The translations under genes were made by a program, and so were the position numbers. Shown here one piece after another: positions 14,529 through 64,000 of a DNA stretch of 64,000 bases (position 1 is its first letter; every line of letters begins with the position of its first letter). The notes beneath the pieces were generated by a model. That model was given only the letters and a program-made list of their open reading frames with translations, was not told the DNA's origin and did no database searches. This DNA comes from Candidatus Moraniibacteriota bacterium (GTDB lineage: Bacteria; Patescibacteriota; Minisyncoccia; Moranbacterales; UBA1568), in the NCBI GenBank assembly GCA_963743885.1, contig CAVURJ010000002.1, positions 36,721 to 100,720 on the forward strand, read 5' to 3'.

Positions 14529-14536
14529 AAAAAGAT

Positions 14537-22093: not shown

Positions 22094-22163
22094 GGCGTTC
22101 ATCGGTACGAAGGACGAACCAGATGGGACATGATCCCGTCTGGTATTTTTTTGGACCGATAAA

Positions 22164-28264: not shown

Positions 28265-29665
<1,401 letters not shown>

Positions 29666-39289: not shown

Positions 39290-39298
39290 GTTTCTTCG

Positions 39299-40732: not shown

Positions 40733-40862
40733 GTCATCTTGAAAGACATCAAAATATTATATGTGAATAACCCGGGATATTCCACCGGGTTTTTGCTTTG
40801 GGAAAGGGATTCTTTGTGGTATACTAAATAAGATTACAAGAAGAGTAACATCTTCTTTTTTT

Positions 40863-40878
40863 AGGCTTATATAAGCCT
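40863..40878. promoter_or_regulatory. Perfect 16-bp palindrome AGGCTTATATAAGCCT, 8 nt upstream of the first gene of the surface cluster
   Basis: Self-complementary. Replaces the expected SD position. Candidate operator or RBS-occluding hairpin. Confidence 0.4.
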
Positions 40879-40885: not shown

Positions 40886-41593
40886 ATGGCAGAAGAAGGA
40901 ACATCACCCATGCTTTCTGGGAGTATTGCGGAAGCCTATAGTGGACCGCGTCGGTCGAATAGGTTGTTCGTCTTTTTGACGATCTTTACGGTCATACTGC
41001 TTGCTGTAGCAGGGTATTTTCTTTATGGGCGATATTTTGTTCCTGAGACGGAGGATACACCACAAACTGAGGCTAATCTTCCTGCTCCGACAACGGAGAC
41101 TGCGTCACCGAGGACGGTTTCGGAGCCCGTACCACTTCTTTCGGATGCAAATTATCAGAGCGAGAATTTCCGTGTCGGAGAGATCGCTATCGGCGGTGAA
41201 GCAGAGTTCATTTTGGCGGAGGATACGCCGGATCCTATCGCGGTAAGTGGCATCCGTGGCGAGGCCTTTACTGAGAAGAACCGGCCAGAGGTCAAGTTGG
41301 TGCTTTCTTGGAAGACGAACAAGTTGGCCCGGTCAGAAGTCGCTTATTCCAAGGGGGTTGGACAACCCGAAAAGACAGTGGTCGAGGATGATTACAGCTT
41401 CAACCATAGCGTCGTCATACCCGGTCTTGACCAGGCGTCGACGTATGTGTATTTCATCACCGCGTATGACCGTTTCGGGGGCGAAACGAAGAGTGAATCG
41501 CACGCGGTTTATACCGGTTCGAAGTCCGTCTCACTGTTCGATTTGATCGCGGGTGCGGTAGGTGATGTTTTTGGCTGGGCTGTCAAAAAATAG
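40886..41593 (+). CDS. Membrane-anchored hypothetical protein with FN3-like beta-sandwich region, 235 aa
   Basis: N-terminal TM 'LFVFLTIFTVILLAVAGYFLY'. C-terminal 'EVKLVLSWKTNK...TYVYFITAYDRFG' resembles a fibronectin-III-type fold. Confidence 0.55.
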   Translation: MAEEGTSPMLSGSIAEAYSGPRRSNRLFVFLTIFTVILLAVAGYFLYGRYFVPETEDTPQTEANLPAPTTETASPRTVSEPVPLLSDANYQSENFRVGEIAIGGEAEFILAEDTPDPIAVSGIRGEAFTEKNRPEVKLVLSWKTNKLARSEVAYSKGVGQPEKTVVEDDYSFNHSVVIPGLDQASTYVYFITAYDRFGGETKSESHAVYTGSKSVSLFDLIAGAVGDVFGWAVKK

Positions 41594-41599
41594 GGGTAT

Positions 41600-41625
41600 T
41601 TGACAAGCGAAAAATGTGCTATAAT
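41600..41625 (+). promoter_or_regulatory. Extended -10 promoter TTGACA-14-TGcTATAAT upstream of the giant gene
   Basis: TTGACA 41600-41605, short 14-nt spacer compensated by a TGn extended -10 (TATAAT 41620-41625). Confidence 0.45.
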
Positions 41626-41653
41626 TCGTAGGTGAATCTGGTGCCGAGTTTGG

Positions 41654-44600
41654 GTGAAAGACATGCTGTCATATGTAAGAAATAAAAACCGAAAATCATT
41701 TGCTAAACTCCTGTTCTCCGCGATAGCGGTGGGGGTCATCTGTCTAGGGTGGTACAACATACGACCTGTTTTTGCGCAGTTTGTCGACGCACAGTCAATC
41801 CAGAGAATTGGCTTGTCTGCGTCACTTTTCAACTCTGAGAACCGTATTATCACGAACGGGACCTATGAGGTTCGCTTCGCGATTTACTCCAAGGACCGTG
41901 CGGAAAGTGATGTGTATCCGTCCAATGCCGACGCTGGCAGCCGGCTCTGGGAGGAGACACAGACGGTTTCGGTGAAGAACGGCGTCTTCCGTGTTTTCCT
42001 CGGCTCGGCCAATCCGCTGCCGGAATCGCTCACGTTCAACGAGGGGGATTACTATGTCGGCATGCGGATCGGGACTGATTCTGAGATGGTGCCGCGCAAG
42101 CGTCTCGGATCAGTGCCGCGTGCTATCAACTCGCAGTACCTCGGAGGGAAGCAGGTTGGCACGGGTGCCGGCGATATCCTCACGCTCGGCAACAAGGGTA
42201 AGATCGATATCAAGCAGCTTCCGACCGGGACGGGTTCGAAGCAGCTTGTGCTCGGCAATGATTCCCGCCTCCAGGATTCACACCAACAGAATTCGGATAT
42301 CGGAACTGACTCGACCGTCTTCACGATTGGTGACGGCGCATCGCTCGCAGACAATTTCTTGCTTAACGTTTCTTCAGCCAGCAATACGCCGGCTATCCGT
42401 TTCAATGGATCGACGGGAGCATGGCAGTTTTCGAATGATGGGACGACGTTTGCGGATATTTCCTCCGGCTCAAGCGGAACCTACCTGCCACTTGCTGGCG
42501 GAACGATGACGGGTGCAATCGTTTTCGCTCCGGCACAATCGTTTGCGGACCTGATTAGTCTTGGCGCGGATACAGTCGGGAATTATCTAGCATCTGTTTC
42601 CGGCGGGAATGGCATCGTGGTTTCTGGTTCTGGTTCTGAAGGAGCAACGCCGACGGTATCGCTCAGTCTGCTTGGTTCGGCCGATGGTACCGGGGCTGCT
42701 TCTTCCAACTCCGGTCTTGAATTCCAGGGAGTGGGGTTGAGTGAGCTTACGCTGCTCCAAGGTTGTTCAAATGGGCAGGGGCTCTCATGGAATGATACGA
42801 CGAATGTTTGGGAATGCACGAGCTTTTCTGCTGGGTTGGCAGGAAGCGGGACGGCTGGGTATGCGACGTATTGGAGCGGAGCGAGTTCGCTCGGTTCGGA
42901 GCAGTATCTTTCCTCAGTCCGTGGTGGCACTGGTCTTGATGCATCGGCTGCCAGCAACGGGTCGTTGCTCATTGGCAATGGCTCCGGGTTTACCTTGAAT
43001 ACATTGGCAGGATCGGGGGGTGTGACAGTGACTAATGCTGTCGGGATAATTACTCTTGGTCTTGATGCATTGACATCTGGCACTACGGCGACGACCTATT
43101 CCAATTCCGGTCTTGAGACGACTGCGGACGGTATCAGATTGCTCGGTGGCTGTAACGATGAACAGGTGCTCGCGTGGAACGCTACTCTTGAACGATGGGT
43201 ATGTTCCAACAAGACTGGTGGCACCAGCGATTGGACGAGCACTGGTTCGTACACATATCTGACCGATGCTACGGACGACCTGGTCATCGGCGGCGCGACG
43301 ACGGATGCAGGATTTTTCTTTGATGTTTCTGCTGGGACACTTGCCTTCGAAGGGACGACAGCTGACACATATGAGACGGCCATCGGCGTAATCGATCCGA
43401 CGGCTGATAATACTATCAATTTCCCCAATGTCTCTGGTACCGTTATCACCACCGGCAACCTTTCGAGCATCACTGCTACCGGCACCATCGCTTCCGGCAC
43501 GTGGAATGGCACGACGATCGATGTAGCGCACGGCGGTACGGGCGCTGCCACTTTGAGTGATCTCATCACTCTCGGCACTCATACCGTCGGCAGCTACGTT
43601 TCGACCATCGCTGCCGGCAACGGCATCTCGACCACCGGCGCTTCCTCTGGCGAGACTATCGCTCACACGCTGTCTCTCAAGCTCCTCATCTTAGCCGACA
43701 GCACTGGCGGCACCTCATCCAATTCTGGTCTTGAATTCCAAGGAGTTGGATCGGATTCCTTAGCATTGCTCCAGGGTTGCTCGAACGGGCAGGTCCTTTC
43801 CTGGAATGAAACGACGAGCGTCTGGGAGTGCAATTCTGTTTCTGGCATGGGTGGTGTCACGGGCTCAGCTACTTCTGGTCAGGTTGCCTACTGGGACAGC
43901 TCCTCTTCCATTGCTGGCGAGAACCAGCTTGCTGTTTCGAGAGGTGGTACGGGTATAGGCTCGTACACGATTGGCGATCTCCTCTACGCTTCCGGTGCCA
44001 CGACACTTTCCAGACTTGCTGATGTTGCGACGGGCAATGTACTCATCTCTGGCGGCCTCGGTATCGCGCCATCGTGGGGCAAAGTCGATTTGACGAGCCA
44101 TGTCACTGGCACGCTTCCAGTCGCGAATGGCGGCACTGGAGCTACTTCGCTGAATGATCTCATCACGCTTTCGACGCACACTACCGGCAACTACGTTGCG
44201 AGTGTCTCGAACGGCTCCGGTATCACAGGTGGCAGTGCTGGATCAGAAGGTGCAGCACTTACCCTCGCGATTGATCTCCTTGATTCAGCCGATGGCACTG
44301 GTTCCACATCGTCCAACTCCGGCCTCGAATTCCAGGGTGCAGGATCGAACGAGCTCACCCTCATCCAGGGCTGCTCAAACAACCAGATGCTTCTTTGGAA
44401 CGACACGACCTCCACCTGGTATTGTGGATCGGTTTCAGGTGCCGGCGGTATCGATGGTACTGGCACTGCCGGTTACAGCGCCTATTGGACTGATGTTGAT
44501 ACGCTGGCGAACGAGCAGTATGTCTCGGTTGCGAGGGGAGGGACAGGTCTTTCTGGATCGACCGCCGCGAACGGTACGCTCCTTATCGGCACCGGTACCG

Positions 44601-47600
44601 GGTATGCGCTGGCGACGCTCACGCAGGGTGCGGGCATGACTATTACCAATGGATCTGGCACTATTTCGCTTGCGACGACGCTCGGCGCTTCCGTTGATCT
44701 AGCGACTGAAATCACTGGTACTTTGCCGATTGGCAATGGTGGTACTGGGGTGGCGCTGACTGATCCGAATGCTGATCGTATCATGTTCTGGGATGATTCG
44801 GCGGGCGTGGTTGCTTTTCTGACGCCGGCGGCGAATCTCTCGATCTCCGGGACAACGATCGATCTCGCAGCGTCTGTTCAGCTCGGTGCTGATGGCACGG
44901 ACGGCGTGTTTGCGCTCTACTCTGAGCAGGGCGTGACGGACTACATGACAACCTTCCAGCCCGGCACCCAGACGCAGAATGTCACATACACGCTGCCGAA
45001 CGATGACGGCGCTTCCGGCCAGGTGCTTGTCACCAATGGTACTGGTACGCTTTCGTGGTCGAGTGTTTCCGGTGCGGGTGGTGTGACCGGTACGGGGACA
45101 ACAAACTATGTCGCGTATTGGGATAGCCCGAGCTCAATCGCGGCGGAGCAGTATCTGTCGCTCTCGCGGGGTGGTACGGGGACATCGCTCACCGATCCGA
45201 ATGCTGATCAGATCATGTTCTGGGATGATTCAGCAGGCAATGTCGCATTCCTTGCGCCATCTTCGAACCTTTCGATTTCAGGAACGGGTGTTGATCTCGC
45301 ATCCGCGGTCACGATTGGAAGTTCTTTGCAACTCGGCCAGAATGGCACCGATGGCACATTGACACTCTTCTCCGAGCAGGGCGCGACTGATTATACGACG
45401 GTGTTTCAGCCCGGCACCCAGACGCAGAATGTCACATACACGCTGCCGAACGATGACGGCGCTTCCGGCCAGGTGCTTGTCACCAATGGTACTGGTACGC
45501 TTTCGTGGTCGAGTGTTTCCGGTGCGGGTGGTGTGACCGGTACGGGGACAACAAACTATGTCGCGTACTGGGATAGCCCGAGCTCAATCGCGGCGGAGCA
45601 GTATCTGTCGCCTACGCGTGGTGGTACCGGCGTGGGCACATTCACGCCGAATGGCGTTCTCTACGGCAACGGCACCGGAGCTGTCCAGGTGACGGCAGCA
45701 GGTACTTCGGCGCAGCTTCTTCTTGCGAACGGTTCCGGTGTCCCGACGTTTGTCTCGATGTCGAGCGATGCCACCATTACGAATGCTGGCGTTCTTACGA
45801 TTGCGGCTGATGCGGTTGCTCTCGGCGGAGATACCACTGGCAACTACGTCGCCTCTGTCTCTACTTCCGCGACGACCGGGCTGACGGGCGGATCGGCTGG
45901 CAGCGAAAGTGCCGCGCTTTCGCTCGCATTCGATTATACGAGCACACTCGTCGGCAATCCGAGTCTCGCTGCAGGTAGTGCCGTCTTTGGTACGACCGGT
46001 CTCATCTTCGAGGGTACGACAGCAGATGCTTTTGAGGGCCTCCTGACATTGATCGATCCGACTACTGACAATACTTGGACGCTACCGAATGTTTCGGGAA
46101 CAGTCATTACGACTGGTAATCTCTCCTCTATTACCGCTACTGGCACGATCGCTTCTGGTACGTGGAACGGTACAGTCATCGGTGCCCAGTACGGCGGCAC
46201 CGGCGCAGCGACGCTCACGCCGAATGGCGTTCTCTACGGCAACGGCACCGGAGCTGTCCAGGTGACGGCAGCAGGTACTTCGGCGCAGCTTCTTCTTGCG
46301 AACGGTTCCGGTGTCCCGACGTTTGTCTCGATGTCGAGCGATGCCACCATTACGAATGCTGGCGTTCTTACGATTGCGGCTGATGCGGTTGCTCTCGGCG
46401 GAGATACCACTGGCAACTACGTCGCCTCTGTCTCGAATGGCTCCGGCATCACGGGCGGCAGCGTCGGATCGGAAGGCGCAGCGCTGACTCTCGCAATCGA
46501 CCTCCTCGACTCGGCCGATGGCGCCGGTTCTACTAGCTCTAACTCCGGACTCGAGTTCCAGGGGGCTGGTTCCAACGAGCTCGGGCTTCTCCAAGGTTGT
46601 GCGAACAATGAGGTTCTTTCTTGGAACGACACGACTTCCGTCTGGCAGTGTGCTTCCGTTTCTGGTGTCGGTGGCGTCACAGGATCTGGTGTCTCCGGCC
46701 AGGTGGCCTACTGGGATGGCACCTCGTCCATCGCCGGAGAGAACCAGCTCAGCGTTTCACGAGGCGGCACAGGTCTCGGCACCTACGTCATCGGCGATAT
46801 CCTCTACGCTTCCGGCGCAGCCGCTCTTTCGCGATTGGCGGATGTCGCGACGGGCAATGTGCTCATCTCTGGCGGTGTCGGCATTGCTCCATCCTGGGGC
46901 AAAGTCGACCTGATGAGTCATGTCACAGGCACTCTCTCAGTTGCAAATGGCGGCACGGGCGCCACGACGCTTGCTGACCTCATCACCCTCAGCACCCACA
47001 CCACCGGCAACTACGTCGCCTCTGTCTCAAACGGCTCCGGTATCACGGGCGGCAGCGCCGGATCGGAAGGGGCGGCGCTCACGCTCGCGCTCGGTGCCCT
47101 GACGGCGGACTGGAACCAGACCGGAGCCTTCGACATCGCGCTCGGCAACGCCTCGTCTGAGCTCAAGATCATGGAATCGACCGGAGCCACCTACTACGGC
47201 ATCTTCGACGTGGGGGATCTGAGCGCTGATCGGACGCTGACGGTGCCGAATGTTTCTGGTGTTATCGCGACCGTCGATGGTGCTCAGACCTTTACCTCTG
47301 CGACGTGGAACGGTACAGTCATCGGTGCCCAGTACGGCGGCACCGGCGCAGCGACGCTCACGCCGAATGGCGTTCTCTACGGCAACGGCACCGGAGCTGT
47401 CCAGGTGACGGCAGCAGGTACTTCGGCGCAGCTTCTTCTTGCGAACGGTTCCGGTGTCCCGACGTTTGTCTCGATGTCGAGCGATGCCACCATTACGAAT
47501 GCTGGCGTTCTTACGATTGCGGCTGATGCGGTTGCTCTCGGCGGAGATACCACTGGCAACTACGTCGCCTCTGTCTCGAATGGCTCCGGCATCACGGGCG

Positions 47601-56600: not shown

Positions 56601-57292
56601 AGAGTTCGGCAGATTCATTCCTTGAATTGTACGGCCGCGTCGATGACATAGAGCGGGGATTGAGTGCGCTTATCGATCCGGAAGATGGGGAAATCGCGCT
56701 TGTGAAGAATAGTGTTGCTGATGCGCAGCGGAGCATCGTGGGATTGGATGGCCGGATGACGGTTCTGGAAAGCCAGGTCGCGGCGCTGTATGAGTTTTAC
56801 ACGAGCACCGAGCTCGGCAGTATTGTTACGAAGGATGTGACCGGTAGCGTCGATCTTTTGGATGGTAGCCTGACAGCGCAGCTTGTGCAGGCTGGTCTTG
56901 TCAAGGCGGATCTGATTGAGGGTGTCATTTCTGGCGGCATAGCTATTGAGAATGCTGATGAGACATCGCAGACCATTGGCACGGCGGTTATTTGCCCGAT
57001 TGTCACGGACACGGATAGCGATGGCAAGGATGACTGTTCAGGTATTGATATAGCTGATGCTGATGCGGTAGCGGATCAGGATGGTACGTATGTGGAGGTC
57101 AAGACCAAGGCGATGATTCCGATGGTCAACGGCTCTCGTGTCTTCACAACCTTCAAGGACAACCCGAATGCGTTCAGTTGGATCGAGAAGATCAAGGATG
57201 AAGACGGAGAATATGTCGGTTTCAAGATCCGTCTCGATAAGGCAGTGACCGCCAAGGTGAAGGTTGATTGGCTCTTGGTTGAACAGAAATAA
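41654..57292 (+). CDS. Giant secreted/cell-surface Thr/Gly/Ser-rich repeat protein (5212 aa), probable fibrous adhesin
   Basis: Single uninterrupted frame. N-terminal signal/anchor 'FAKLLFSAIAVGVICLGWYNIRPVFA'. Recurring modules 'LPVANGGTGATTLADLITLSTHTTGNYVASVSNGSGITGGSAGSEGAALTLAL' and 'TGATYYGIFDVGDLSSDQTYSFTTGGTVWTSGNDG'. Distinct C-terminal ~330-aa non-repetitive domain. Start may be GTG 41654 or ATG 41663. Confidence 0.85.
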   Translation: MKDMLSYVRNKNRKSFAKLLFSAIAVGVICLGWYNIRPVFAQFVDAQSIQRIGLSASLFNSENRIITNGTYEVRFAIYSKDRAESDVYPSNADAGSRLWEETQTVSVKNGVFRVFLGSANPLPESLTFNEGDYYVGMRIGTDSEMVPRKRLGSVPRAINSQYLGGKQVGTGAGDILTLGNKGKIDIKQLPTGTGSKQLVLGNDSRLQDSHQQNSDIGTDSTVFTIGDGASLADNFLLNVSSASNTPAIRFNGSTGAWQFSNDGTTFADISSGSSGTYLPLAGGTMTGAIVFAPAQSFADLISLGADTVGNYLASVSGGNGIVVSGSGSEGATPTVSLSLLGSADGTGAASSNSGLEFQGVGLSELTLLQGCSNGQGLSWNDTTNVWECTSFSAGLAGSGTAGYATYWSGASSLGSEQYLSSVRGGTGLDASAASNGSLLIGNGSGFTLNTLAGSGGVTVTNAVGIITLGLDALTSGTTATTYSNSGLETTADGIRLLGGCNDEQVLAWNATLERWVCSNKTGGTSDWTSTGSYTYLTDATDDLVIGGATTDAGFFFDVSAGTLAFEGTTADTYETAIGVIDPTADNTINFPNVSGTVITTGNLSSITATGTIASGTWNGTTIDVAHGGTGAATLSDLITLGTHTVGSYVSTIAAGNGISTTGASSGETIAHTLSLKLLILADSTGGTSSNSGLEFQGVGSDSLALLQGCSNGQVLSWNETTSVWECNSVSGMGGVTGSATSGQVAYWDSSSSIAGENQLAVSRGGTGIGSYTIGDLLYASGATTLSRLADVATGNVLISGGLGIAPSWGKVDLTSHVTGTLPVANGGTGATSLNDLITLSTHTTGNYVASVSNGSGITGGSAGSEGAALTLAIDLLDSADGTGSTSSNSGLEFQGAGSNELTLIQGCSNNQMLLWNDTTSTWYCGSVSGAGGIDGTGTAGYSAYWTDVDTLANEQYVSVARGGTGLSGSTAANGTLLIGTGTGYALATLTQGAGMTITNGSGTISLATTLGASVDLATEITGTLPIGNGGTGVALTDPNADRIMFWDDSAGVVAFLTPAANLSISGTTIDLAASVQLGADGTDGVFALYSEQGVTDYMTTFQPGTQTQNVTYTLPNDDGASGQVLVTNGTGTLSWSSVSGAGGVTGTGTTNYVAYWDSPSSIAAEQYLSLSRGGTGTSLTDPNADQIMFWDDSAGNVAFLAPSSNLSISGTGVDLASAVTIGSSLQLGQNGTDGTLTLFSEQGATDYTTVFQPGTQTQNVTYTLPNDDGASGQVLVTNGTGTLSWSSVSGAGGVTGTGTTNYVAYWDSPSSIAAEQYLSPTRGGTGVGTFTPNGVLYGNGTGAVQVTAAGTSAQLLLANGSGVPTFVSMSSDATITNAGVLTIAADAVALGGDTTGNYVASVSTSATTGLTGGSAGSESAALSLAFDYTSTLVGNPSLAAGSAVFGTTGLIFEGTTADAFEGLLTLIDPTTDNTWTLPNVSGTVITTGNLSSITATGTIASGTWNGTVIGAQYGGTGAATLTPNGVLYGNGTGAVQVTAAGTSAQLLLANGSGVPTFVSMSSDATITNAGVLTIAADAVALGGDTTGNYVASVSNGSGITGGSVGSEGAALTLAIDLLDSADGAGSTSSNSGLEFQGAGSNELGLLQGCANNEVLSWNDTTSVWQCASVSGVGGVTGSGVSGQVAYWDGTSSIAGENQLSVSRGGTGLGTYVIGDILYASGAAALSRLADVATGNVLISGGVGIAPSWGKVDLMSHVTGTLSVANGGTGATTLADLITLSTHTTGNYVASVSNGSGITGGSAGSEGAALTLALGALTADWNQTGAFDIALGNASSELKIMESTGATYYGIFDVGDLSADRTLTVPNVSGVIATVDGAQTFTSATWNGTVIGAQYGGTGAATLTPNGVLYGNGTGAVQVTAAGTSAQLLLANGSGVPTFVSMSSDATITNAGVLTIAADAVALGGDTTGNYVASVSNGSGITGGSVGSEGAALTLAIDLLDSADGAGSTSSNSGLEFQGASSNELTLLQGCSDNNVLAWQDASNSWICTSVGGVGAGDITAVGDATTGDAFTAAGTSGTSLYFYDADGRGQLTIANLTAARTYTLPNVSGTIITTGDTGSVTSTMLADSTIAEADLSVTNAATAGYILSYDAGGGFTWIANTGGTGSSKWTDSGTITYLTSTTDDVALGGSTSTASRFFFDVTTGNQIIFEGTGADDANESTLVIANPTADNTLTIPNITGTFVTTGDTASVTGTMITNDTVVLTTDTAGNYVASVSNGSGITGGNGGSEGAALTLALGALTADWNQTGAFDIALNNASSELKIMESTGATYYGIFDVGDLSSDQTYSFTTGGTVWTSGNDGTGSTLDADTLDGHSATYFQTVLANPVTGTGTNGYNAYWNGTGMLGSEQYVATSRGGTGVNGSAAANGALLIGNSTGYSLATLTQGSGVTITNGSGTITIASTLGTSVDLASEVTGTLPVANGGTGATTLADLITLSTHTTGNYVASITNGSGITGGNGGSEGAALTLALSALTADWNQTGAFDIALNNASSELKIMESTGATYYGIFDVGDLASDQTYSFTTGGTVWTSGNDGSGSTLDADTLDGISSASFVQTSGLLFTAAGTSGSSQSINQGDTLTIAAGTGITTTGGVTDTITIASTLGTDISSSEIVDGTIAEADLNATNSPTAGYALIYDVGGGFTWADTGGMGNSKWTDAGTFTYLSGTADNIVVGASTESGAAFEVDTVNTTIKLKEGGTTPTYFGIFDVGDLSSDQTYSFTTGGTVWTSGNDGSGSTLDADTLDGISSASFVQTSGLLFTAAGTSGSSQSINQGDTLTIAAGTGITTTGGATDTITIASTLGTSVDLASEVTGTLPVANGGTGATTLADLITLSTHTTGNYVASVSNGSGITGGSAGSEGAALTLALGALTADWNQTGAFDIALNNASSELKILGSAGTYYGIFDVGALGSDQTYSFTTGGTVWTSGNDGSGSTLDADTLDGHDTAYFQTALTNPVTGTGTSGQVAYWDGTSSIAGENQLSASRGGTGINGATAANGTLLIGNGTGYTLATLTDGAGITVTEGAGTITIASTLGTSVDLASEVTGTLPVANGGTGATTLADLITLSTHTTGNYVASVSNGSGITGGSAGSEGAALTLALGALTADWNQTGAFDIALNNASSELKILGSAGTYYGIFDVGALGSDQTYSFTTGGTVWTSGNDGSGSTLDADTLDGISSASFVQTSGLLFTAAGTSGSSQSINQGDTLTIAAGTGITTTGGATDTVTIAATLGTDIASSEIVDSTIAEADLSVTNAATAGYILSYDAGGGFTWIANTGGTGSSKWTDSGTITYLTSTTDDVALGGSTSTASRFFFDVTTGNQIIFEGTGADDANESTLVIANPTADNTLTIPNITGTFVTTGDTASVTGTMITNDTVVLTTDTAGNYVASVSNGSGITGGNGGSEGAALTLALGALTADWNQTGAFDIALNNTSSELKILGSAGTYYGIFDVGALGSDQTYSFTTGGTVWTSGNDGSGSTLDADLLDGLSSASFVQTSGLLFTAAGTSGSSQSINQGDTLTIAAGTGVTTTGGATDTITIASTLGTSVDLASEVTGTLPVANGGTGATTLADLITLSTHTTGNYVASVSNGSGITGGSAGSEGAALTLALSALTADWNQTGAFDIALNNASSELKILESLGDTYYGIFDVGDLSADRTLTVPNVSGVIATLDGSQTFTSATWNGTAIGAQYGGTGLNTSASTGVPTISSGTWSVDTNYLSLAHGGTNASLTASNGGIVYSTASALSVLAANANSGLALVSGGAGAPTWFAPTVGSVIFAGANGALSSSNTQFFWDNTNNYLGIGDATPTNQFDLLSSSAAHNGIIITNTNAGNYNPIMQFELTENTPLFTLGIDDSDSDKFKITTGSDISGTSQFTIDSSGTTSIANLNLGATTFDADAGIVSWIDMPVTSSATAGTVESYTAQLDGNALLTVYGESDGAGSIQNSGVSIGNSTLQSGAKFAVTQALTTTTAGTMYGVYNSTTDTGIVTTGTDTTYGVYNTVTRTGATGGTISNYGEYISLTGDTGGTSINTGLYVTVTGADTNYAANFMGGNVGIGDSTPAALLTVGSGDLFQVNSSGQVAAGTWQGTVIGAQYGGTGAATLTPNGVLYGNGTGAVQVTAAGTSAQLLLANGSGVPTFVSMSSDATITNAGVLTIAADAVALGGDTTGNYVASVSNGSGITGGSAGSEGAALTLALGALTADWNQTGAFDIALGNASSELKIMESTGATYYGIFDVGDLSADRTLTVPNVSGVIATVDGAQTFTSATWNGTVIGAQYGGTGLNTSASTGVPTISSGTWSVSSSLGVTLGGTGTTTQFTPGSIVFAGASGVYSQDNANFFWDDTNNRLGIGTVSPSASLDIYGTSNALRLSYDSSNYATLSTASTGDLSITSSNTSEAAVVIGTGSAQDVSVQFDGASYDYFSGLDHTTGMYMVGPGFTVQGGNAALTIASTGNVGIGTGATAPTARLDVSLGSTSTTGATEYSVRNTLSDTGIVTTGTDTTYGVYNTVTRTGATGGTISNYGEYISLTGDTGGTSINTGLYVTVTGADTNYAANFMGGNVGIGDSTPAALLTVGSGDLFQVNSSGQVAAGTWQGTVIGAQYGGTGLNTSASTGVPTISSGTWSVNSALGVTTGGTGTTTQFTLGSIVFAGGSGVYNQDNANFFWDDTNNRLGIGTTTPNAGLDILKTTAQLRLSYDASNYTAFTVASDGSIMIDPSGSGNNVLTIGDGGATDQNVLFDGNTNDYYVGQDDTDDSLKVGLGSAVGTNTYLTVASGGNVTVNTGQLNASADGVVTKVNAGNCSDSTFATDTDGTLCVDSTSGSERLYFREGGAWNYIAKTGGFQIPNYETAPQDDLTAQAEGSLEQNTEDVSHYPEYLTDRMQPGELLIPYVDEYLSDGAVHGLYARFTDVKDAMFADERAEIAELKSSADSFLELYGRVDDIERGLSALIDPEDGEIALVKNSVADAQRSIVGLDGRMTVLESQVAALYEFYTSTELGSIVTKDVTGSVDLLDGSLTAQLVQAGLVKADLIEGVISGGIAIENADETSQTIGTAVICPIVTDTDSDGKDDCSGIDIADADAVADQDGTYVEVKTKAMIPMVNGSRVFTTFKDNPNAFSWIEKIKDEDGEYVGFKIRLDKAVTAKVKVDWLLVEQK
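45647..54351 (+). repeat. Nested near-identical segmental duplications inside the giant gene
   Basis: ~215-bp block identical at 45647-45862, 46220-46434, 47363-47577 and 54137-54351 (copies 2 and 3 are 1143 bp apart). ~600-bp block identical at ~48020-48600 and ~51536-52120. Further copies at 49930-50250, 50540-50660 and 51210-51500. Confidence 0.85.
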
Positions 57293-57323
57293 GGTAAAGA
57301 GTTAAGAAGGAAAAGAAGACAGG

Positions 57324-60300
57324 ATGACAAAGGGATATATGAAACCTGAAAGGCGATTAGGAACAATTCTGTGGAGGGCGGCACCTGTTCTGGTTGTTTT
57401 TGCGATTATCGGAGCGGCCGGTTTCGGTTTGGTAAGGCTATGGCAGCATGAGATGGCAGTGATTATTCCTGATGAACTGGCATCTGGGACGGCTCGCACG
57501 GTCACGCTGGTAGCTGGAAAGGATTATCACGTATCGGGTCAATCAGTTGTCGAGAACGTACCGGACAACGAGATGCTTGCTGCTTTTCCGATGCTTCAGG
57601 ACGGATTTTCCGATCTTTCATTTTCGATGGATGCTGATGCGAATATCGCAAAATCAGCTATTGAAAAGACGGTTTCCCTGTCTGAGAGTGCTGGTCGGGT
57701 GGCGAGTGAATATTCACTTGATGGAATGCGTATTACGACAGAGTATCGTGAGAATGATTCTATTTCAAAACAGTCTGAAAATCAGAAGATGCTTGGCGGA
57801 GGAGAGGGGAGTATATCTATCAAGCAGACGATAACGTTGAAGAACGATCAGGACCAGGAAAAGAAGGTGGCTTTTTCCGTACGGACTAAGATAGCGGCAG
57901 ATAAGGTCGTATGGGATGGCCGCGAATACCGGCTTACCGGTCAGCATGAGACATTTCGTGCTTACGAGAAGACGGCTTCCGTGCCGGAATTCGCCAAGGA
58001 TATGGGACAGAAGGATCTCAAGGGTATCGATGCGTTCAAGGACTATACGCACACCTATACGGTCGGTTCCTCGCTCTCGTTCGCCGACAAGGATGGGAAT
58101 ATGGCCGATTATGATTGGAGTGATGCGCTCGCCTTTCATCCGGAGGTGGTCGCTTATCGCGAGGGTGATGCGTCGTATATCGAGCTCCGGCTTTCGGGGG
58201 TCACGGTTCCGGCGTATGGCGAGACGGTCATCGATCCGGACTATGACCTGGCATCGGGAGCCGGCTACACGGCACGCTACGATGGGGCGTACATAAACAA
58301 TAGCATCAGTTCGATTGCCGTCAGCGATGTGAATGGCGACGGTTTCTCTGATCTCGTCATCAGTTCGCCGTATGCGAGTAATAATAGTCGCACTGGCTCT
58401 GGCTCTGTCTATATCGTATTCCGCAAAGCCGATTCTCCCAGTGGAGTACAGAGTCTTGATGTCGCTGCACACTACAACATCCGCTATGATGGGGCAGCGG
58501 CAGGCGATACTTTCGGGTCAGCAGTGGTCGTCGGCGATGTGAATGGCGATAGCCATTCTGATCTTATCGTCGGTGCATCGACCGCGAGTAATAATAGCCG
58601 CTCCTATTCCGGTTCCGTCTACGTCTTCTTCTCTACCCTGATTGACGATGTCGGCGCCACGACGGGTAACAATCTCGACCTCGCTACCGGGACCAACTAC
58701 AACATCCGCTATGATGGGGCAGCGGCAGGCGATACTTTCGGGTCAGCAGTGGTCGTCGGCGATGTGAATGGCGATAGCCATCCTGATCTTATCGCTGGTG
58801 TGCCGTATGCGAGCAATAATAGTCGCTCCGCTTCCGGTTCCGCCTACGTCTTCTTCTCTACTCTGATCGATGATGTCGGCGCCACGACGGGTAACAATCT
58901 CGACCTCGCTACCGGGACCAACTACAACATCCGCTATGACGGCGCGGAGGCAGGTGACTTTATGGGGCAGTCTGTCACAACAGGCGACGTGAATGGCGAT
59001 AGTTATCCCGACCTCGTGTTGGGCACACCGGACGCTGGCAACAATGCCCGTTCTGGGTCTGGCTCCGTCTACGTCTTCTTCTCTACTCTGATCGATGATG
59101 TCGGCGCCACGACGGGTAACAATCTCGACCTCGCTACCGGGACCAACTACAACATCCGCTATGACGGCGCGGAGGCAGGTGACTTTATGGGGCAGTCTGT
59201 CACAACAGGCGACGTGAATGGCGATAGCCATTCTGATCTTATCGTCGGTGCATCGACCGCGAGTAATAATAGTCGCTCCGCTTCCGGTTCCGCCTACGTC
59301 TTCTTCTCTACTCTGATCGATGATGTCGGCGCCACGACGGGTAACAATCTCGACCTCGCTACCGGGACCAATTACAACATCCGCTATGATGGTGCGGTCG
59401 CAGGTGACTATATAGGACAGACTGCCACAACAGGCGACGTGAATGGCGATAGCCATCCTGATCTTATCGTCGGTGCATCGACCGCGAGCAATAATAGTCG
59501 CTCCGCTTCCGGTTCCGCCTACGTCTTCTTCTCTACTCTGATCGATGATGTCGGCGCCACGACGGGTAACAATCTCGACCTCGCTACCGGGACCAATTAC
59601 AACATCCGCTATGATGGTGCGGTCGCAGGTGACTATATAGGACAGACTGCCACAACAGGCGACGTGAATGGCGATAGCCATCCTGATCTTATCGTCGGTG
59701 CATCGACCGCGAGTAATAATAGTCGCTCCGCTTCCGGTTCCGCCTACGTCTTCTTCTCTACTCTGATCGATGATGTCGGCGCCACGACGGGTAACAATCT
59801 CGACCTCGCTACCGGGACCAATTACAACATCCGCTATGATGGTGCGGTCGCAGGTGACTATATGGGGCAGTCTGTCACAACAGGCGACGTGAACAGCGAC
59901 GGTTATTCGGATATGATCGCTCAGACACAAGCGTCTTCGGGGGATGATCTTGTGTACATCTTATTCTCTACTTTGATTGACGACGTGGGCGCCACCACCG
60001 GCAACAATTTTGATTTGGCTACGAGCACTAATTACAGTGCGCGCTTTGATGGTGCGCCGTCGCTGGGCACATATGTCGATGGCCGATTAGCTATCGGCGA
60101 CGTGAACGGTGACGGTATAGATGATCTCGTGATTGGAGGAGTGAGTATCTATGTTATTTTCGGCGGACAGCATCCTACGGGAAACCGTTTGCTTACGGTG
60201 GCCGGGAATTATAATATCCGTTATAACAGCGTTAGCACTCATATTGCCATCGGCGACGTGAACGGCGACGGTTTCTCTGATCTTGTTATCGGTTCATCAT

Positions 60301-61802
60301 CCGCGAGCAATAATAGTCGCTCCTATTCCGGTTCTGTCTACGTCTTCTTCTCTACTCTGATCGATGATGTCGGCGCCACAACCGGTAACAACAAAGACCT
60401 CGCTACTGGTACCAACTACAACATCCGCTATGATGGTGCGGTCGCAGAGGATACTCTCGGGTCAGCAGTAGTCATCGGCGACGTGAATGGCGATAGTCAT
60501 CCTGATCTTATCGTCGGTGCGCCGTATGCGAGCAATAATAGTCGCTTTCATTCCGGCTCCGTCTACGTCTTCTTCTCTACTCTGATCGATGATGTCGGCG
60601 CTACGACCGGTAATGACAAGGATCTGGCTACCGGGACCAACTACAACATCCGCTATGACGGGGTAGTTACGAGCGGATATTATGGCGAAGCGCTGTTCAC
60701 TGGCGACGTGAACGGCGACGGTTATGCTGATCTTGTACTCGGTAATGGGAACACGAGTTACAATAGCCGCGCCTATTCCGGTTCCGCCTACGTCTTCTTC
60801 TCTACCCTGATTGACGATGTGGGCGCCACCACTGGTAACAATCTCGACCTCGCTACTGGTACCAACTACAACATCCGCTATGATGGTGCGACTGCCAGTG
60901 CTCGGTTAGTTGGCGCCGAGGGAGCTATTGTTATTGGTGATGTAAATGGCGACAGCCACCCCGACCTTATCGTCGGTGCGCCGTATACGAGTTATAATAG
61001 TCGCTCCGCTTCCGGTTCCGCCTACGTCTTCTTCTCTACCCTGATTGACGATGTGGGCGCCACGACCGGTAACAATCTCGACCTCGCGATAGGGACCAAC
61101 TACAACATCCGCTATGATGGCGCGGCCGCCGAGGACAGGCTGACATACGGGGAAAATAGCAAAGTATTGACGGCTGGCGATGTGAATGGCGACGGTTATC
61201 CTGATCTTGTGTTCGGATCGTCATATATTGATAACAATAGCCGTTCTTACTCTGGCTCTGTCTATGTCCTCTTCTCTACCCTGATTGACGATGTGGGCGC
61301 CACGACCGGTAACAACAAAGACCTGGCTACCGGGACCAACTACAACATCCGCTATGATGGCGCGGCCGCCGGTGATTGGCTGGCTGGCTATTCGGGAGTG
61401 ATTATCGGGGATGCTGATGGCGACGGCCACCCCGACCTCGTCTTCGGTACGTCGCTGGCCGACAATAATTCTCGGACGAATTCTGGCGCGCTCTATATGC
61501 TTTCTTCTACTCTGATTGATGATGTCGGCGCTACGACCGGTAATGACAAGGATCTGGCCACCGGTACCAACTACAGCATCCGCTACGATGGGGCTCTTGC
61601 TAATGACGGACTTGCCTCTGTTCCGGAAACCATTGCCATCGGCAATCTGGGCGGCAAAGCGAATCTCGCGTTTTGTGTAGGGACAGGACCATATAATAGC
61701 GGCTCCGTCTATATTATCGAAAAAGGTGGCCCATCAGCTCATCAGCCGTTCGGTATCCAGGGCCAGGCCAAGTTTAATGGCGCCATCAAGCTTGGGCACT
61801 AG
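57324..61802 (+). CDS. Membrane-anchored FG-GAP (integrin-alpha-like beta-propeller) repeat protein, 1492 aa
   Basis: N-terminal TM 'VLVVFAIIGAAGFGLV'. At least 14 tandem ~73-aa repeats of 'GDVNGDG(F/Y/H)xDL(V/I)xG...NNSRS.SGS.YVFFSTLIDDVGATTGNNLDLATGTNYNIRYDG', matching the FG-GAP consensus (Ca-binding DxNxDGxxD loop). Confidence 0.8.
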   Translation: MTKGYMKPERRLGTILWRAAPVLVVFAIIGAAGFGLVRLWQHEMAVIIPDELASGTARTVTLVAGKDYHVSGQSVVENVPDNEMLAAFPMLQDGFSDLSFSMDADANIAKSAIEKTVSLSESAGRVASEYSLDGMRITTEYRENDSISKQSENQKMLGGGEGSISIKQTITLKNDQDQEKKVAFSVRTKIAADKVVWDGREYRLTGQHETFRAYEKTASVPEFAKDMGQKDLKGIDAFKDYTHTYTVGSSLSFADKDGNMADYDWSDALAFHPEVVAYREGDASYIELRLSGVTVPAYGETVIDPDYDLASGAGYTARYDGAYINNSISSIAVSDVNGDGFSDLVISSPYASNNSRTGSGSVYIVFRKADSPSGVQSLDVAAHYNIRYDGAAAGDTFGSAVVVGDVNGDSHSDLIVGASTASNNSRSYSGSVYVFFSTLIDDVGATTGNNLDLATGTNYNIRYDGAAAGDTFGSAVVVGDVNGDSHPDLIAGVPYASNNSRSASGSAYVFFSTLIDDVGATTGNNLDLATGTNYNIRYDGAEAGDFMGQSVTTGDVNGDSYPDLVLGTPDAGNNARSGSGSVYVFFSTLIDDVGATTGNNLDLATGTNYNIRYDGAEAGDFMGQSVTTGDVNGDSHSDLIVGASTASNNSRSASGSAYVFFSTLIDDVGATTGNNLDLATGTNYNIRYDGAVAGDYIGQTATTGDVNGDSHPDLIVGASTASNNSRSASGSAYVFFSTLIDDVGATTGNNLDLATGTNYNIRYDGAVAGDYIGQTATTGDVNGDSHPDLIVGASTASNNSRSASGSAYVFFSTLIDDVGATTGNNLDLATGTNYNIRYDGAVAGDYMGQSVTTGDVNSDGYSDMIAQTQASSGDDLVYILFSTLIDDVGATTGNNFDLATSTNYSARFDGAPSLGTYVDGRLAIGDVNGDGIDDLVIGGVSIYVIFGGQHPTGNRLLTVAGNYNIRYNSVSTHIAIGDVNGDGFSDLVIGSSSASNNSRSYSGSVYVFFSTLIDDVGATTGNNKDLATGTNYNIRYDGAVAEDTLGSAVVIGDVNGDSHPDLIVGAPYASNNSRFHSGSVYVFFSTLIDDVGATTGNDKDLATGTNYNIRYDGVVTSGYYGEALFTGDVNGDGYADLVLGNGNTSYNSRAYSGSAYVFFSTLIDDVGATTGNNLDLATGTNYNIRYDGATASARLVGAEGAIVIGDVNGDSHPDLIVGAPYTSYNSRSASGSAYVFFSTLIDDVGATTGNNLDLAIGTNYNIRYDGAAAEDRLTYGENSKVLTAGDVNGDGYPDLVFGSSYIDNNSRSYSGSVYVLFSTLIDDVGATTGNNKDLATGTNYNIRYDGAAAGDWLAGYSGVIIGDADGDGHPDLVFGTSLADNNSRTNSGALYMLSSTLIDDVGATTGNDKDLATGTNYSIRYDGALANDGLASVPETIAIGNLGGKANLAFCVGTGPYNSGSVYIIEKGGPSAHQPFGIQGQAKFNGAIKLGH

Positions 61803-61890
61803 TAAACCCACAAACAGCGGTCCGACTGCTGTAAAGAAGTGATAAAGCCCAAATTTCAGAGCCCAAAAAGCCAAATAGACCACAGAACCT

Positions 61891-62250
61891 ATGACTCAAA
61901 GCCCAAATAAATACCGACTACTAGAAACCCGAACGACGGAATTCGCAAAGCGTATAATCCGTCTGTGCAAGGCTCTTCCGAAAAATATGATAAATTATCG
62001 GTTGATAGATCAGATTGTCCGATCGGCTGGTTCGGTTGGAGCAAATTATCGGGAAGCCAATGAAACGGTGGGGAGAAAAGATTTCGTGTATCGTATCCGT
62101 ATAGCAAGGAAAGAATGCAAAGAGACAGAACATTGGTTGGATCTTATCCGAGAGGCGAATGCGGAGTTTGATGCGAGAATGGATGAATTATTTCGAGAAT
62201 GCCTCGAGATAAGGAAAATCCTTTCCGCCATCATTAAAAAATCGAAGTAG
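61891..62250 (+). CDS. Four-helix-bundle protein (IVS-protein family), second copy
   Basis: 'IIRLCKALPKN...RLIDQIVRSAGSVGANYREANETVGRKDFVYRIRIARKECKETEHWLDLI' matches the same family pattern as 39318-39704. Confidence 0.7.
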   Translation: MTQSPNKYRLLETRTTEFAKRIIRLCKALPKNMINYRLIDQIVRSAGSVGANYREANETVGRKDFVYRIRIARKECKETEHWLDLIREANAEFDARMDELFRECLEIRKILSAIIKKSK

Positions 62251-62402
62251 AAAGAGGTTGTTTCCCGTTTGAATTTTCGTGTTTTGTGCCCTATTTGGTT
62301 TTCTGTGTTCTGATTCTTGTGCTCTGTCTGGCTTTTTGTGCATTGGTTCCTGTGTTCTCTTAAGTCATTAGAAAATTAGATATTCGGTATTCATATACAT
62401 AT

Positions 62403-64000
62403 ATGTCTGACTACGGTTTCACCAAACACAGAGCCTTCCAATGGATGTTCATCATCATAATTCTCATGGGGGGCGTTTTCGCGTACTATCATTTCCGTTC
62501 TTATGCAGCGGTGACGCTCAATAAAATATCTGGCGGGACGGTCAAGCTGGATACGTCGCAGAACAGCCAATTGACGAACGGCCTAGTGGGCGAGTGGTCG
62601 TTCAATGGCGCGGACATGTCCGGTACCACGGCCTATGACCGGAGCGGCCAGGGGAACAACGGCACGCTCACCAACGGCCCGACGCCGGCTATTGGTCAGG
62701 TTGGCCAGGCGCTCTCGTTTGATGGAACAGATGATTATGTGAATGTTGGGAAAAGTGTTGGCGCGAGTACGATGACTGTGACTGCCTGGGTGAAGCCGGA
62801 TTTCTCATCGCAGTATAATTCCGGGCGTCACTGCATCATTGCCGCAGCTGCAGCCACGAATTATTTTAGTGTGTGCTACGCCGGGGACTATAGTAGCATA
62901 CAAGGATGGATCACGCGCTTTCGCGGTGGCGGCGTGACTGACAATGAATCGTATGGGATCCGAAAAACGACGAATAATGGTTTTCAAGGAAATTGGATAT
63001 TTGTCGCTGTTACGCTCGATAAGGATGTCGGTGCGAAGATATATGAGGATGGCGTGCTTCAAGGTTTCAGTCCGGGCACGACGGGTATCATGGGGAGCAA
63101 TACCGCTGTCGTTATCGGCAATAACGGCAGCGGAGCGGGTTTTTGGAAAGGCGCTATGGATGAGGTGCGCGTGTATAATCGTGTACTGCCAGCAAGCGAG
63201 GTCTGGGATCTTTATCAATTGGGAGTGGCGGATAAGGCTAGCTCGGCATCGAGTCAGGGCGATCCGCTCGAAAAAGGCCTTGCGGGTTATTGGAATCTTG
63301 ATGATGGGAGCGGGACGACTGCTACGGATGCTTCGGTGAATGCGAACAATGGCACGCTTACCAATGGCCCGACATGGAGTACGGGACAGATCGGCGGCGG
63401 TGCTGTCTTTGATGGGACGGATGATTATGTATCGATAAGCAATCCTCCGGTGGTAGGATGGCCGCTGACAATGAGCGTATGGTTCAAGACGACGGACGCG
63501 ACCGCGAGTTACCGATCTATGGCGGCTTTGCTTGGTGTTAATTCGTTTGCGATTTTACAGTTCGATCTCTCCAGTTGTGGCGGCCCCGGGAAGGTAAAGT
63601 ATATTATCCGGGATAATGGCGGTAGCGTTTTAGCGCAGAAATGCTCGTCAACCGATTTGAACGATGGTATGTGGCATCATGCAGTAGGCGTGAGCTCATC
63701 AGCGAGCGATCATAGGCTGTATATAGATGGGGCATTGCAAGGAAGCGACGCTACTGCTTTAGGGGCAACGACGTTTACTTCTATGAGGATAGGAACCAAG
63801 GTATCGGGTGATCAGCACTTCCCCGGGTCTCTTGATGATGTCCGCGTCTATAGTCGCGCCCTCTCCGATGGCGATGTCGCCAAGCTCTACAGGACGACAG
63901 CGCCGGATGATCCAGATACGGGACTTAAGGGCTATTGGAGTTTCAATGGTACTGATGTCTCCGGTACGACGGCCTACGACAGAAGTGGGAGCGGGAGTAA
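62403..64000 (+). CDS. Membrane-anchored LamG/concanavalin-A-like (Laminin_G_3-type) repeat protein, 5' part (runs off the window)
   Basis: Hand translation from ATG 62403 shows no stop through base 64000, so it is absent from the closed-ORF track. N-terminal TM 'WMFIIIILMGGVFAYY'. Repeated 'L.G.W.F.G......D.SG.GNNGTLTNGPT...G.GQ.G.AL.FDGTDDYV' and 'MDEVRVYNRVLPASEVWDLY' / 'LDDVRVYSRALSDGDVAKLY' LamG_3 signatures. At least 3 domains. Confidence 0.7.
   Translation, partial: MSDYGFTKHRAFQWMFIIIILMGGVFAYYHFRSYAAVTLNKISGGTVKLDTSQNSQLTNGLVGEWSFNGADMSGTTAYDRSGQGNNGTLTNGPTPAIGQVGQALSFDGTDDYVNVGKSVGASTMTVTAWVKPDFSSQYNSGRHCIIAAAAATNYFSVCYAGDYSSIQGWITRFRGGGVTDNESYGIRKTTNNGFQGNWIFVAVTLDKDVGAKIYEDGVLQGFSPGTTGIMGSNTAVVIGNNGSGAGFWKGAMDEVRVYNRVLPASEVWDLYQLGVADKASSASSQGDPLEKGLAGYWNLDDGSGTTATDASVNANNGTLTNGPTWSTGQIGGGAVFDGTDDYVSISNPPVVGWPLTMSVWFKTTDATASYRSMAALLGVNSFAILQFDLSSCGGPGKVKYIIRDNGGSVLAQKCSSTDLNDGMWHHAVGVSSSASDHRLYIDGALQGSDATALGATTFTSMRIGTKVSGDQHFPGSLDDVRVYSRALSDGDVAKLYRTTAPDDPDTGLKGYWSFNGTDVSGTTAYDRSGSGS

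Follow-up and report, generated by a model that had tools for sequence, protein, structure and literature searches.

A putative giant surface fibre of the phage tail-fibre and Bdellovibrio MAT type, encoded beside parAB in a Candidatus Moranbacteria genome

Overview of the gene cluster

The 64,000 nt stretch of contig CAVURJ010000002.1 analysed here (the window) carries a conserved gene cluster, to which about 2% of the genome is devoted, centred on a giant gene, B (41654-57292). B encodes a protein of 5,212 amino acids in an uninterrupted reading frame of 15.6 kb. On balance the protein is probably a very long extracellular fibre, belonging to a phage-tail-fibre-like family whose characterised members are the 'mosaic adhesive trimer' (MAT) fibres by which Bdellovibrio recognises its prey. 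The best reading of the data is a MAT-like trimeric surface fibre of the type lacking a Peptidase_S74 (S74) domain, with a small membrane-anchored partner encoded by the gene directly upstream, A (40886-41593). Downstream lie gene C (57324-61802), gene D (61891-62250) and gene E, which begins at 62403 and runs past the end of the window. The open reading frame (ORF) map placed all five on the plus strand, as are nearly all genes of the window, at exactly the positions listed in an earlier note made from the sequence alone; the features of the cluster described below, the palindrome apart, are likewise on the plus strand. A single N-terminal hydrophobic segment was found in each of A, B, C and E and none in D. 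Together with the Pfam results this bears out the view of the earlier note that all four large products have signal or anchor sequences and extracellular-type domains.

Homology searches of B were run with its end fragments; for proteins A and C, no exact match turned up in public assemblies. Homologs of the N-terminus of B come almost exclusively from Candidatus Moranbacteria/Moraniibacteriota, confirming the suspected affiliation of the organism with the Candidate Phyla Radiation (CPR). Such a bacterium is tiny and probably host-dependent. The rest of the window is occupied by housekeeping genes, including those for aminoacyl-tRNA synthetases, RecO, TGT, ATP synthase, leucyl-tRNA synthetase (LeuRS), RNase T, BacA, FolD, tRNA-Leu, ParA and ParB. 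Neither phage genes nor a reverse transcriptase were found among the annotated ORFs of the window.

Family placement and distal end of B

Tail-fibre profiles, suggested in the earlier note as a route to the identity of the giant protein, proved to be the right lead, since the B family is homologous to both phage tail fibres and Bdellovibrio MAT fibres. A profile of the C-terminal part of the family, with S74-bearing relatives included (profile A1), was searched against the sequences of the PDB. It matched a phage long tail fibre (6f45, E = 3.7e-10), Bd2133 (8ond, 1.1e-9), Bd3182 (8ojn, 9.3e-6), MyRF (1.2e-4) and Bd1334 (8oml, 3.7e-4), as well as 8jov, the phage long-tail-fibre matches being to S74 regions. 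The alignment with Bd2133 passes through the capping-loop motifs FFWDxxNNxLGIG and VGIGxxxPxxxL, of which B has five copies, at residues 3858, 4111, 4405, 4618 and 4729. These motifs and the A1 matches define a beta-helix-type region at residues 3839-4849 (53168-56200).

S74 (PF13884) is an autoproteolytic C-terminal intramolecular chaperone of phage long tail fibres and tailspikes, among them K1F endosialidase, T5 pb1 and S16 gp37. Relatives retrieved with the C-terminal 833 amino acids of B often carry this domain and are named 'tail fiber domain-containing protein', so that the kinship was already hinted at in database annotation. In relatives of the S74 type the alignment shows SDxxxK intact and, after it, a coiled coil and the terminal domain shared with B; P0052, P0072, P0068 and P0058 have an S74 domain with the catalytic SDxxxK. 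The last 372 amino acids of B are unique within the protein. At the position of S74, B instead has a Cys-containing module (residues 4850-4963, 56201-56542) that reads CSDSTF..DGTLC..YFRxGGAWxY..GFQIPNYE..PYVDEYLSDGAVHGLYARF. It is followed by a predicted coiled coil (residues 4964-5051, 56543-56806), seen as helices 305-347 and 353-392 of the AlphaFold2 (AF2) model and as a weak profile match to trimeric coiled coils, and by the conserved terminal beta domain, which ends in VDWLLVEQK (residues 5052-5212 and stop codon, 56807-57292). AF2 predicted the latter as a soluble domain with a predicted local distance difference test (pLDDT) score of 85-94.

PF13884 did not match residues 4783-5212 of B even at E ≤ 10, and the aligned position reads SDSTFA, with the catalytic Lys missing. 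The Cys module replaces S74 in the B protein of the window, in four other aligned proteins and in 11 of the 24 loci from relatives, which makes for a roughly even division of these Moranbacteria loci into S74 and Cys-module forms. A degenerate S74 domain was considered as the origin of the Cys module and rejected (hhalign probability 0.08%). As the two are unrelated by profile-profile comparison, their alternation at one position points to a module swap. Neither the Cys module nor the terminal domain gave a Pfam, PDB or PHROG match, and they are defined here as two new domains. One homolog is named a trimeric autotransporter adhesin (JGI). That assignment was rejected for B, which has no YadA or autotransporter Pfam match and ends in a soluble beta domain.

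The tail-fibre-like modules of B, and the S74 domain of its relatives, could also be taken to mean that the giant gene is a captured phage tail-fibre gene, the remnant of a prophage or tailocin and not a cellular surface structure. Against this, no other phage structural, lysis or integration genes accompany it, the flanks are housekeeping genes (LeuRS, BacA, FolD, ParAB) and the only PHROG match in the cluster is a weak tail-fibre match inside B. The chromosomal position is fixed across Moranbacteria species and, unlike phage fibres, B carries a Sec signal peptide. The C-terminal 1,430 amino acids of B yielded no tblastn match in 50,697 phage genomes, and at 5,212 amino acids B far exceeds any phage tail-fibre protein known to us. 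A phage remnant is therefore scarcely credible.

The repeat shaft

Residues 176-3838 of B (42179-53167) form a mosaic of shuffled, duplicated fibre modules, recognised by DNA self-matches, motif counts, Cys pairs and phage matches. Module types include GGTG/LITL, paired-Cys and TADWNQ-YYGIFDVG-LDADxLDG, among others. The description of B in the earlier note as a Thr/Gly/Ser-rich giant with repeated modules and a unique C-terminal part was borne out: Gly, Thr, Ser and Ala account for 52% of residues, and the motif class GGTGA..L.DLITL..HT.G.YV occurs seven times. In a self-BLAST of fragments, residues 241-4840 (87% of the protein) recurred within B at an identity of at least 40%, 42% at ≥90% and 21% at ≥98%, and the DNA self-matches of the gene have identities of 76-100% over lengths of up to 1.26 kb. 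Regularly spaced Cys pairs, from 371/388 and 500/517 through to 4858/4872 and 5114/5128, fit what would be expected of disulfide-stapled extracellular modules. Matches from the middle of the protein were to tail-fibre and virion structural proteins of cyanophages (E = 2e-8 to 7e-4) and to PHROG 31660, a tail fiber family (E = 2.5e-6).

Orthologs of B vary widely in length, from about 2,160-2,380 amino acids (loci L014, L018 and L019) through about 4,500 (L002) to 5,603, and a single cluster at 90% identity includes forms of 3,703, 4,205, 4,245 and 4,318 amino acids. This spread, together with the near-identical internal DNA repeats, indicates that the shaft evidently changes rapidly in length by recombination among the repeats.

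The same repeats raise the question of whether the true gene encodes about 2,300 amino acids and owes its apparent length to mis-assembly. Repeats of 99-100% identity reach about 450 bp, the giant gene is split into fragments in L001 and L002, and most database relatives of the B N-terminus are labelled 'partial', which implies that assemblies usually break within the gene. The 15.6-kb frame is nevertheless free of interruptions, intact relatives of 3,186-5,603 amino acids are present in independent assemblies, and the repeat copies make up a mosaic of identities between 76 and 100%, unlike a simple tandem inflation. The uninterrupted frame and the independent giant relatives make an assembly artefact very unlikely.

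Signal peptide and N-terminal base domain

The start of B and its Sec signal peptide occupy 41654-41779, with a hydrophobic segment at residues 14-36, an AF2 helix at residues 2-35 and a PVFA-Q cleavage motif (cut between A and Q). The signal peptide is of typical Sec type with an AxA-like cleavage site, and 34 orthologs share the N-terminal consensus MxxYVKNKNxK...PVFAQ. Translation probably begins at ATG 41663 and not at GTG 41654, because the protein then opens with MLSYVRNKN, in keeping with the MxxYVKNKN of the orthologs.

Directly after the signal peptide follows a conserved beta-rich 'fibre base' domain (residues 43-175, 41780-42178), supported by AF2 and by a profile of the domain (A4). 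Residues 50-155 were predicted as a confident beta-sandwich of about 110 amino acids (pLDDT about 90). Out of 1.84 billion, profile A4 retrieved 20,556 representative proteins at E ≤ 1e-3; the stricter threshold of 1e-10 left 5,050. The domain occurs at residues 35-160, approximately, of complete CPR fibres of 0.8-1.4 thousand amino acids ending in S74; in other phyla its fusion partners are phage tail-collar, collagen or H-type lectin domains. It had no match in the PDB, PHROG or Pfam. The base of B belongs to a very large unnamed superfamily with more than 20,000 representatives.

Comparison with known fibres

Bdellovibrio MAT fibres are surface-displayed trimers with a beta-rich domain of about 130 amino acids right after the signal peptide and with either an S74 or a variable non-S74 end; glycan specificity has been shown for one of them (PMC10769870). 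The Bdellovibrio genome encodes 21 MATs, and the named constructs end at residues 922-1,151 (Caulton et al. 2024, PMC10769870). B resembles these fibres in having a signal peptide followed by a conserved beta-rich N-domain, a likeness at the level of architecture only, and a long beta-rich fibre with capping loops of the VGIGxxxPxxxL type. Its family is divided into S74 and non-S74 forms with swapped end modules, as are the S74 and NS74 MATs, and the family profile, S74-bearing relatives included, matches the sequences of solved fibres at E values of 1e-9 to 4e-4. Both are encoded in the chromosome, and Bdellovibrio is a bacterium that lives on other bacteria. B differs in being about five times longer, and 87% of it consists of recently duplicated modules for which the Bdellovibrio fragments of solved structure showed no counterpart. 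S74-type Moranbacteria relatives have, after the S74 domain, a coiled coil and one more conserved domain, of about 170 amino acids; B has the Cys module in place of S74. The window has one such locus, beside parAB and with a dedicated upstream membrane protein, as against 21 MATs in the Bdellovibrio genome.

The likeness to phage S74 fibres lies in the relatives of B with intact SDxxxK, in the A1 matches to 6f45 and 8jov and in the matches of the shaft modules to cyanophage tail fibres. B itself, however, has no S74 domain or catalytic Lys, carries a Sec signal peptide, is chromosomal with no phage genes nearby and is many times longer.

Giant proteins have also been described in the CPR predator Vampirococcus lugosii. 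Its reduced genome encodes membrane-associated proteins of 1,392-4,163 amino acids that contain domains of integrin and fibronectin type and were put forward as building a fibrous surface for attachment (Moreira et al. 2021, PMC8080830). By that description the likeness is one of a CPR bacterium with giant membrane-associated proteins and proposed attachment fibres. Vampirococcus belongs to another CPR lineage, the Absconditabacteria, and its proteins are characterised there by generic adhesion domains; in the passages retrieved by a term search of the main text they are not linked to tail fibres or MATs. No paper linking CPR bacteria to S74 or MAT-type fibres was found in the literature searched. 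What is new here is the huge expansion, the novel non-S74 end module with an extra terminal domain, the dedicated upstream partner and the conserved locus in a different host-dependent phylum.

Neighbouring genes and conservation of the locus

Gene A encodes a predicted type II membrane protein of 235 amino acids, with a transmembrane segment at about residues 27-49, a Pro/Thr/Glu linker and a putative FN3-like beta domain. Its match to the FN3-like family Pur_ac_phosph_N (PF16656) is below the Pfam cutoff (E = 0.003, 18.5 bits against 30); the same weak match recurs in the A orthologs of L001 and L027.

Gene C encodes an N-terminally anchored FG-GAP repeat protein of 1,492 amino acids (PF01839; E = 1.5e-111, 363.5 bits against a cutoff of 22.1, in 15 stretches), with 15 intact DxNxD loops and about 16 repeats of 75 amino acids that appear in the DNA as tandem repeats with a period of 225. 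The earlier note had described a 14-blade FG-GAP protein; the domain and the Ca-binding-type loops stand, while the number of repeats is about 16. C starts 31 nt after B, and neither a promoter motif nor a terminator was found in between, so that the two genes are likely to be co-transcribed.

The visible 5' part of gene E (62403-64000) encodes an N-terminally anchored Laminin_G_3 (LamG_3) repeat protein with a transmembrane segment at residues 10-29. The multi-LamG assignment of the earlier note holds, with two stretches in the visible 532 amino acids (PF13385; E = 1e-44, 152.8 bits against a cutoff of 27.6). A match of E to the TafC fimbrial equivalog reached 58 bits, below the cutoff of 410. 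LamG_3 proteins in corresponding loci measure 842 amino acids (L001) and more than 2,604 (L027). C and E are clear Pfam members of the integrin-alpha FG-GAP and LamG/concanavalin-A-like families, C with its Ca-binding-type loops. An integrin propeller has seven FG-GAP repeats, compared with the roughly 16 near-identical ones of C, and C and E each bear a bacterial N-terminal membrane anchor.

One genome per species was scanned with the alignment of the terminal domain, yielding 24 loci; L001, L002 and L027 were fetched separately. In L001, a closed Moranbacteria genome of 1.22 Mb (CP064975.1), the order is RNase T, BacA, FolD, ParA, ParB, LamG_3, a small ORF, an A-like gene and the giant gene. 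L002 shows FolD, ParA and ParB, then, further along, an A-like gene, the giant gene (fragmented, with Peptidase_S74 near its end), a small ORF and FG-GAP. The 177-kb metagenomic contig L027, which stops short of parB, has FG-GAP (1,589 amino acids), an A-like gene (347) directly upstream of a giant fibre gene (5,603, with S74), four small genes and LamG_3 (>2,604). The order ParB, A, B was found in all five loci that reach that far (L001, L002, L014, L018 and L019). The earlier note had stated that absence of the cluster from relatives, or loss of its synteny, would weaken the idea of an attachment system; neither is the case. A lies directly upstream of the fibre gene in seven cases out of seven (these five, L027 and the window). 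Among the 24 scanned loci, FG-GAP is downstream of B in 12 and a four-helix-bundle (4HB) gene directly follows B in four. LamG is near the giant gene in three loci, downstream in two and upstream in L001. In most loci at least one of the FG-GAP, 4HB and LamG types adjoins the fibre gene. A and B thus form an invariant pair, with FG-GAP and LamG genes often close by but in changing positions.

Two further observations were made on these loci. In L001, a gene of 236 amino acids and a second giant gene (>2,185 amino acids) lie directly after the first fibre gene (18906-22403), which may be a tandem second fibre unit. Fourteen of the 24 loci (L004, L006-L008, L010, L012-L014, L016, L019, L020 and L024-L026) are titled 'uncultured Bdellovibrionales bacterium'. 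These titles are almost certainly a taxonomy-mapping error, because the loci share the Moranbacteria synteny and their ParA is up to 94% identical to that of the window (L019). They could mislead, given the true likeness of the proteins to Bdellovibrio MAT fibres.

The earlier note had treated the four proteins as a single apparatus. This was not supported, since roughly every second locus has FG-GAP behind the fibre gene, few have LamG and the order varies. A surface-protein island, whose fibre, FG-GAP and LamG proteins would act in the envelope independently of one another, accounts for the cluster data equally well. The proteins might then serve in a surface-layer-like coat, in cell-cell cohesion or in the binding of nutrients or polysaccharides, and their genes would be clustered only because exported giant genes gather in a permissive region by parAB. 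Besides the variable order and content, unrelated genes such as AAA_14/DUF4143 are interspersed in L027, A and B each have their own promoter motif, and another surface-type protein, with a DUF11 domain, is encoded elsewhere in the window (5894-7804). Such an island is less easily reconciled with the constant placement of A directly before B, with the 31-nt junction of B and C lacking a recognisable promoter or terminator, and with the fact that distant relatives, for all their rearrangements, combine these three types of protein. On this evidence it is possible, if on the unlikely side.

Proposed function of the fibre

As a MAT-like fibre, B would be exported by Sec and its signal peptide cut at the conserved VFA-Q site. 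The N-terminal beta domain would stay near the cell and dock on a surface component, for which protein A is the best candidate. The CPR bacterium Vampirococcus has a single membrane (PMC8080830), and attachment of B to an outer membrane is on that account unlikely. About 4,600 residues of duplicated beta-rich modules would build a presumably trimeric shaft. Extrapolated roughly from the tip of Bd2133, in which 370 amino acids span 150 Å (PMC10769870), this would be about 0.2 µm long, approximately the size of a CPR cell. The distal end would consist of the beta-helix region with its capping loops, the Cys-stapled module that replaces S74, the coiled coil and the terminal domain. As the Ser-Lys motif of S74 is missing, this end would not be self-cleaved and would stay on the fibre. 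By analogy, the fibre would most probably contact another cell or surface, that of a host or prey, together with the membrane-anchored FG-GAP propeller and the LamG lectin-like protein as possible co-adhesins, the distal end or lateral modules of the fibre binding the surface of the other cell. Shaft length and module content would evolve quickly by recombination between the internal repeats.

Several points weigh against this picture. B alone has no Pfam or NCBIfam family and no PDB match at E ≤ 0.01, the link to MAT fibres coming from a profile that includes S74-bearing relatives. Beyond the two end domains, monomer AF2 models were of low confidence (pLDDT 58-62), and a search for similar folds with the two models returned nothing significant, the weak top matches being T4 gp34, Bd2133, phage depolymerases and tailspikes. 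Likeness to the N-domain of Bdellovibrio MATs is confined to architecture, trimeric assembly is presumed and docking on protein A is purely conjectural. The linkage of FG-GAP and LamG to the fibre gene is frequent and not universal. A role in adhesion or host attachment is suggested by a single kind of evidence, family resemblance. Finally, the terminal domain is among the best conserved parts of B, unlike a tip that determines specificity, and would be cleaved off in S74-type relatives; for these reasons it may serve in assembly or trimerisation and not in adhesion.

To our knowledge, host attachment in CPR bacteria (Patescibacteria) is understood only for cultured Saccharibacteria, which use type IV pili, and nothing is known for most lineages, Moranbacteria included. 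The locus offers a specific, conserved, sequence-defined candidate for attachment, with a base domain, a dedicated partner gene and two alternative distal modules, and extends the MAT/tail-fibre family, so far characterised in Bdellovibrio, to a very different host-dependent bacterium. A broader proposal, put forward tentatively, is that tail-fibre-derived, MAT-like fibres are what Moranbacteria use to recognise host cells and keep hold of them, and that this extends to many CPR bacteria. The fibres would be anchored through a dedicated FN3-like membrane protein, their length and modules rapidly retuned by recombination and their end swapped between a self-cleaving S74 form and a Cys-module form that is not cleaved. 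If so, the fibre would be a host-range system built into the cell, analogous to the receptor-binding proteins of phages, and the fibre, FG-GAP and LamG locus beside parAB would be the core attachment organelle of the lineage.

Promoters and palindromes

A consensus scan predicted a promoter for A at 40798-40825 (TTGGGA-16-TATACT, with the extended -10 element TGGTATACT at 40817), and elements of the TGnTAnAnT type also precede the A orthologs of L001, L014, L018 and L019. B has an extended -10 element of its own, TGCTATAAT, at 41617-41625, identified in the sequence and in a motif survey. On the plus strand of the window six of nine occurrences of TGnTAnAnT are intergenic, five of these within about 70 nt upstream of a gene start. 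The copies at 16703, 27191, 34756, 40817 and 41617 stand shortly before gene starts and have no good -35 at standard spacing. TGnTAnAnT is probably the main promoter signal of the organism.

The perfect 16-bp palindrome AGGCTTATATAAGCCT reported in the earlier note at 40863-40878 is present there, in the 5' untranslated region of A, downstream of the conserved extended -10 promoter. Its suggested role, as an operator or translational switch for the cluster, fared less well. The palindrome is perfect, ends 8 nt before the ATG at the position of the ribosome-binding site and lies inside the predicted 5' untranslated region. It was not present, however, upstream of any of the five orthologs examined, and perfect 16-bp palindromes occur four times in the window against about 0.7 expected. 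As B has its own promoter, the palindrome could affect A at most, and control of the cluster by it is improbable. Other perfect palindromes of 16-20 bp, at 38101-38120 (20 bp, between folD and tRNA-Leu), 29722-29739 and 31723-31738, are probably terminator or processing hairpins.

4HB cassettes and hairpin elements

Gene D encodes a 4HB protein of 119 amino acids, a 23S_rRNA_IVP member (PF05635, Avd-like; E = 3.9e-22, 78.9 bits against a cutoff of 33.8). It sits in a cassette at 61841-62328, bounded by 48-nt imperfect inverted repeats (61841-61888 and 62281-62328); the folded RNA pairs these flanks, with a z-score of -2.87. A second 4HB gene (39246-39704; PF05635, 118.8 bits against the same cutoff) lies between parA and parB. 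The 4HB cassette that the earlier note saw embedded in the cluster therefore exists, although as a separate element bracketed by inverted repeats, found also between parA and parB. It is an inserted element outside the surface system.

Imperfect inverted repeats of 32-48 nt surround every 4HB gene examined and would pair into a long RNA stem, with the whole ORF in its loop. This bracketed architecture was seen in the window (39299-39721 and 61841-62328) and in four relatives: L013 (3986-4484), L018 (8915-9375), L003 (1272-1729) and L015 (4103-4532). The arrangement resembles a 23S rRNA intervening sequence (IVS), yet the genes sit between protein-coding genes (parA and parB, after the FG-GAP gene or after the fibre gene), and the insertion sites vary from genome to genome. 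The two 4HB genes of the window are not copies of one mobile element; this was rejected as they are 23% identical and their flanks are not shared.

Four 'empty' A/T-rich intergenic hairpins of about 130 nt were also found in the window, at 14403-14539, 15577-15709, 23998-24077 and 36203-36320. Those at 14.4, 15.6 and 36.2 kb are about 80% identical, and these three, when folded, gave z-scores of -2.9 to -4.7. The core of their arms, CAAATAAAT...ATTTATTTG, also brackets the 4HB ORF of L013 (4007-4463), and for this reason the hairpins look like 4HB cassette stems without the gene. They resemble a miniature inverted-repeat transposable element or an RNase III-site-like element, and hairpins and 4HB cassettes together look like a single kind of rRNA-IVS-like stem element, inserted between genes and either carrying 4HB cargo or empty.

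4HB proteins are Avd-like, and CPR genomes are rich in diversity-generating retroelements. Such an element was considered and rejected, as there is no reverse transcriptase among the annotated ORFs of the window and no repeat pair with adenine-specific mismatches. The largest single-base mismatch bias among repeat pairs in the window was 0.69, on 13 mismatches.

Other features of the window

Two lytic transglycosylases with SLT domains, one of which also has LysM, are encoded at 3879-7804, followed there by the DUF11-domain protein of 636 amino acids (5894-7804) already mentioned. This is a probable further group of genes for the cell surface or cell wall. An ORF6N-domain gene (phage Rha/antirepressor-like; 27221-27745) lies between the genes for the gamma (26230-27150) and beta (28277-29665) subunits of ATP synthase and has its own extended -10 motif at 27191. 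The leucyl-tRNA synthetase (31239-34145, 968 amino acids) contains an internal NUDIX match at residues 412-505 (E = 5.6e-8), in the stretch that separates the editing domain from the second catalytic half; NUDIX also occurs as a gene of its own at 1423-1962. Lastly, the TatD-family DNase at 19926-21053 has 375 amino acids and matches a profile of 253 positions from end to end, which implies an insertion of about 120 amino acids.

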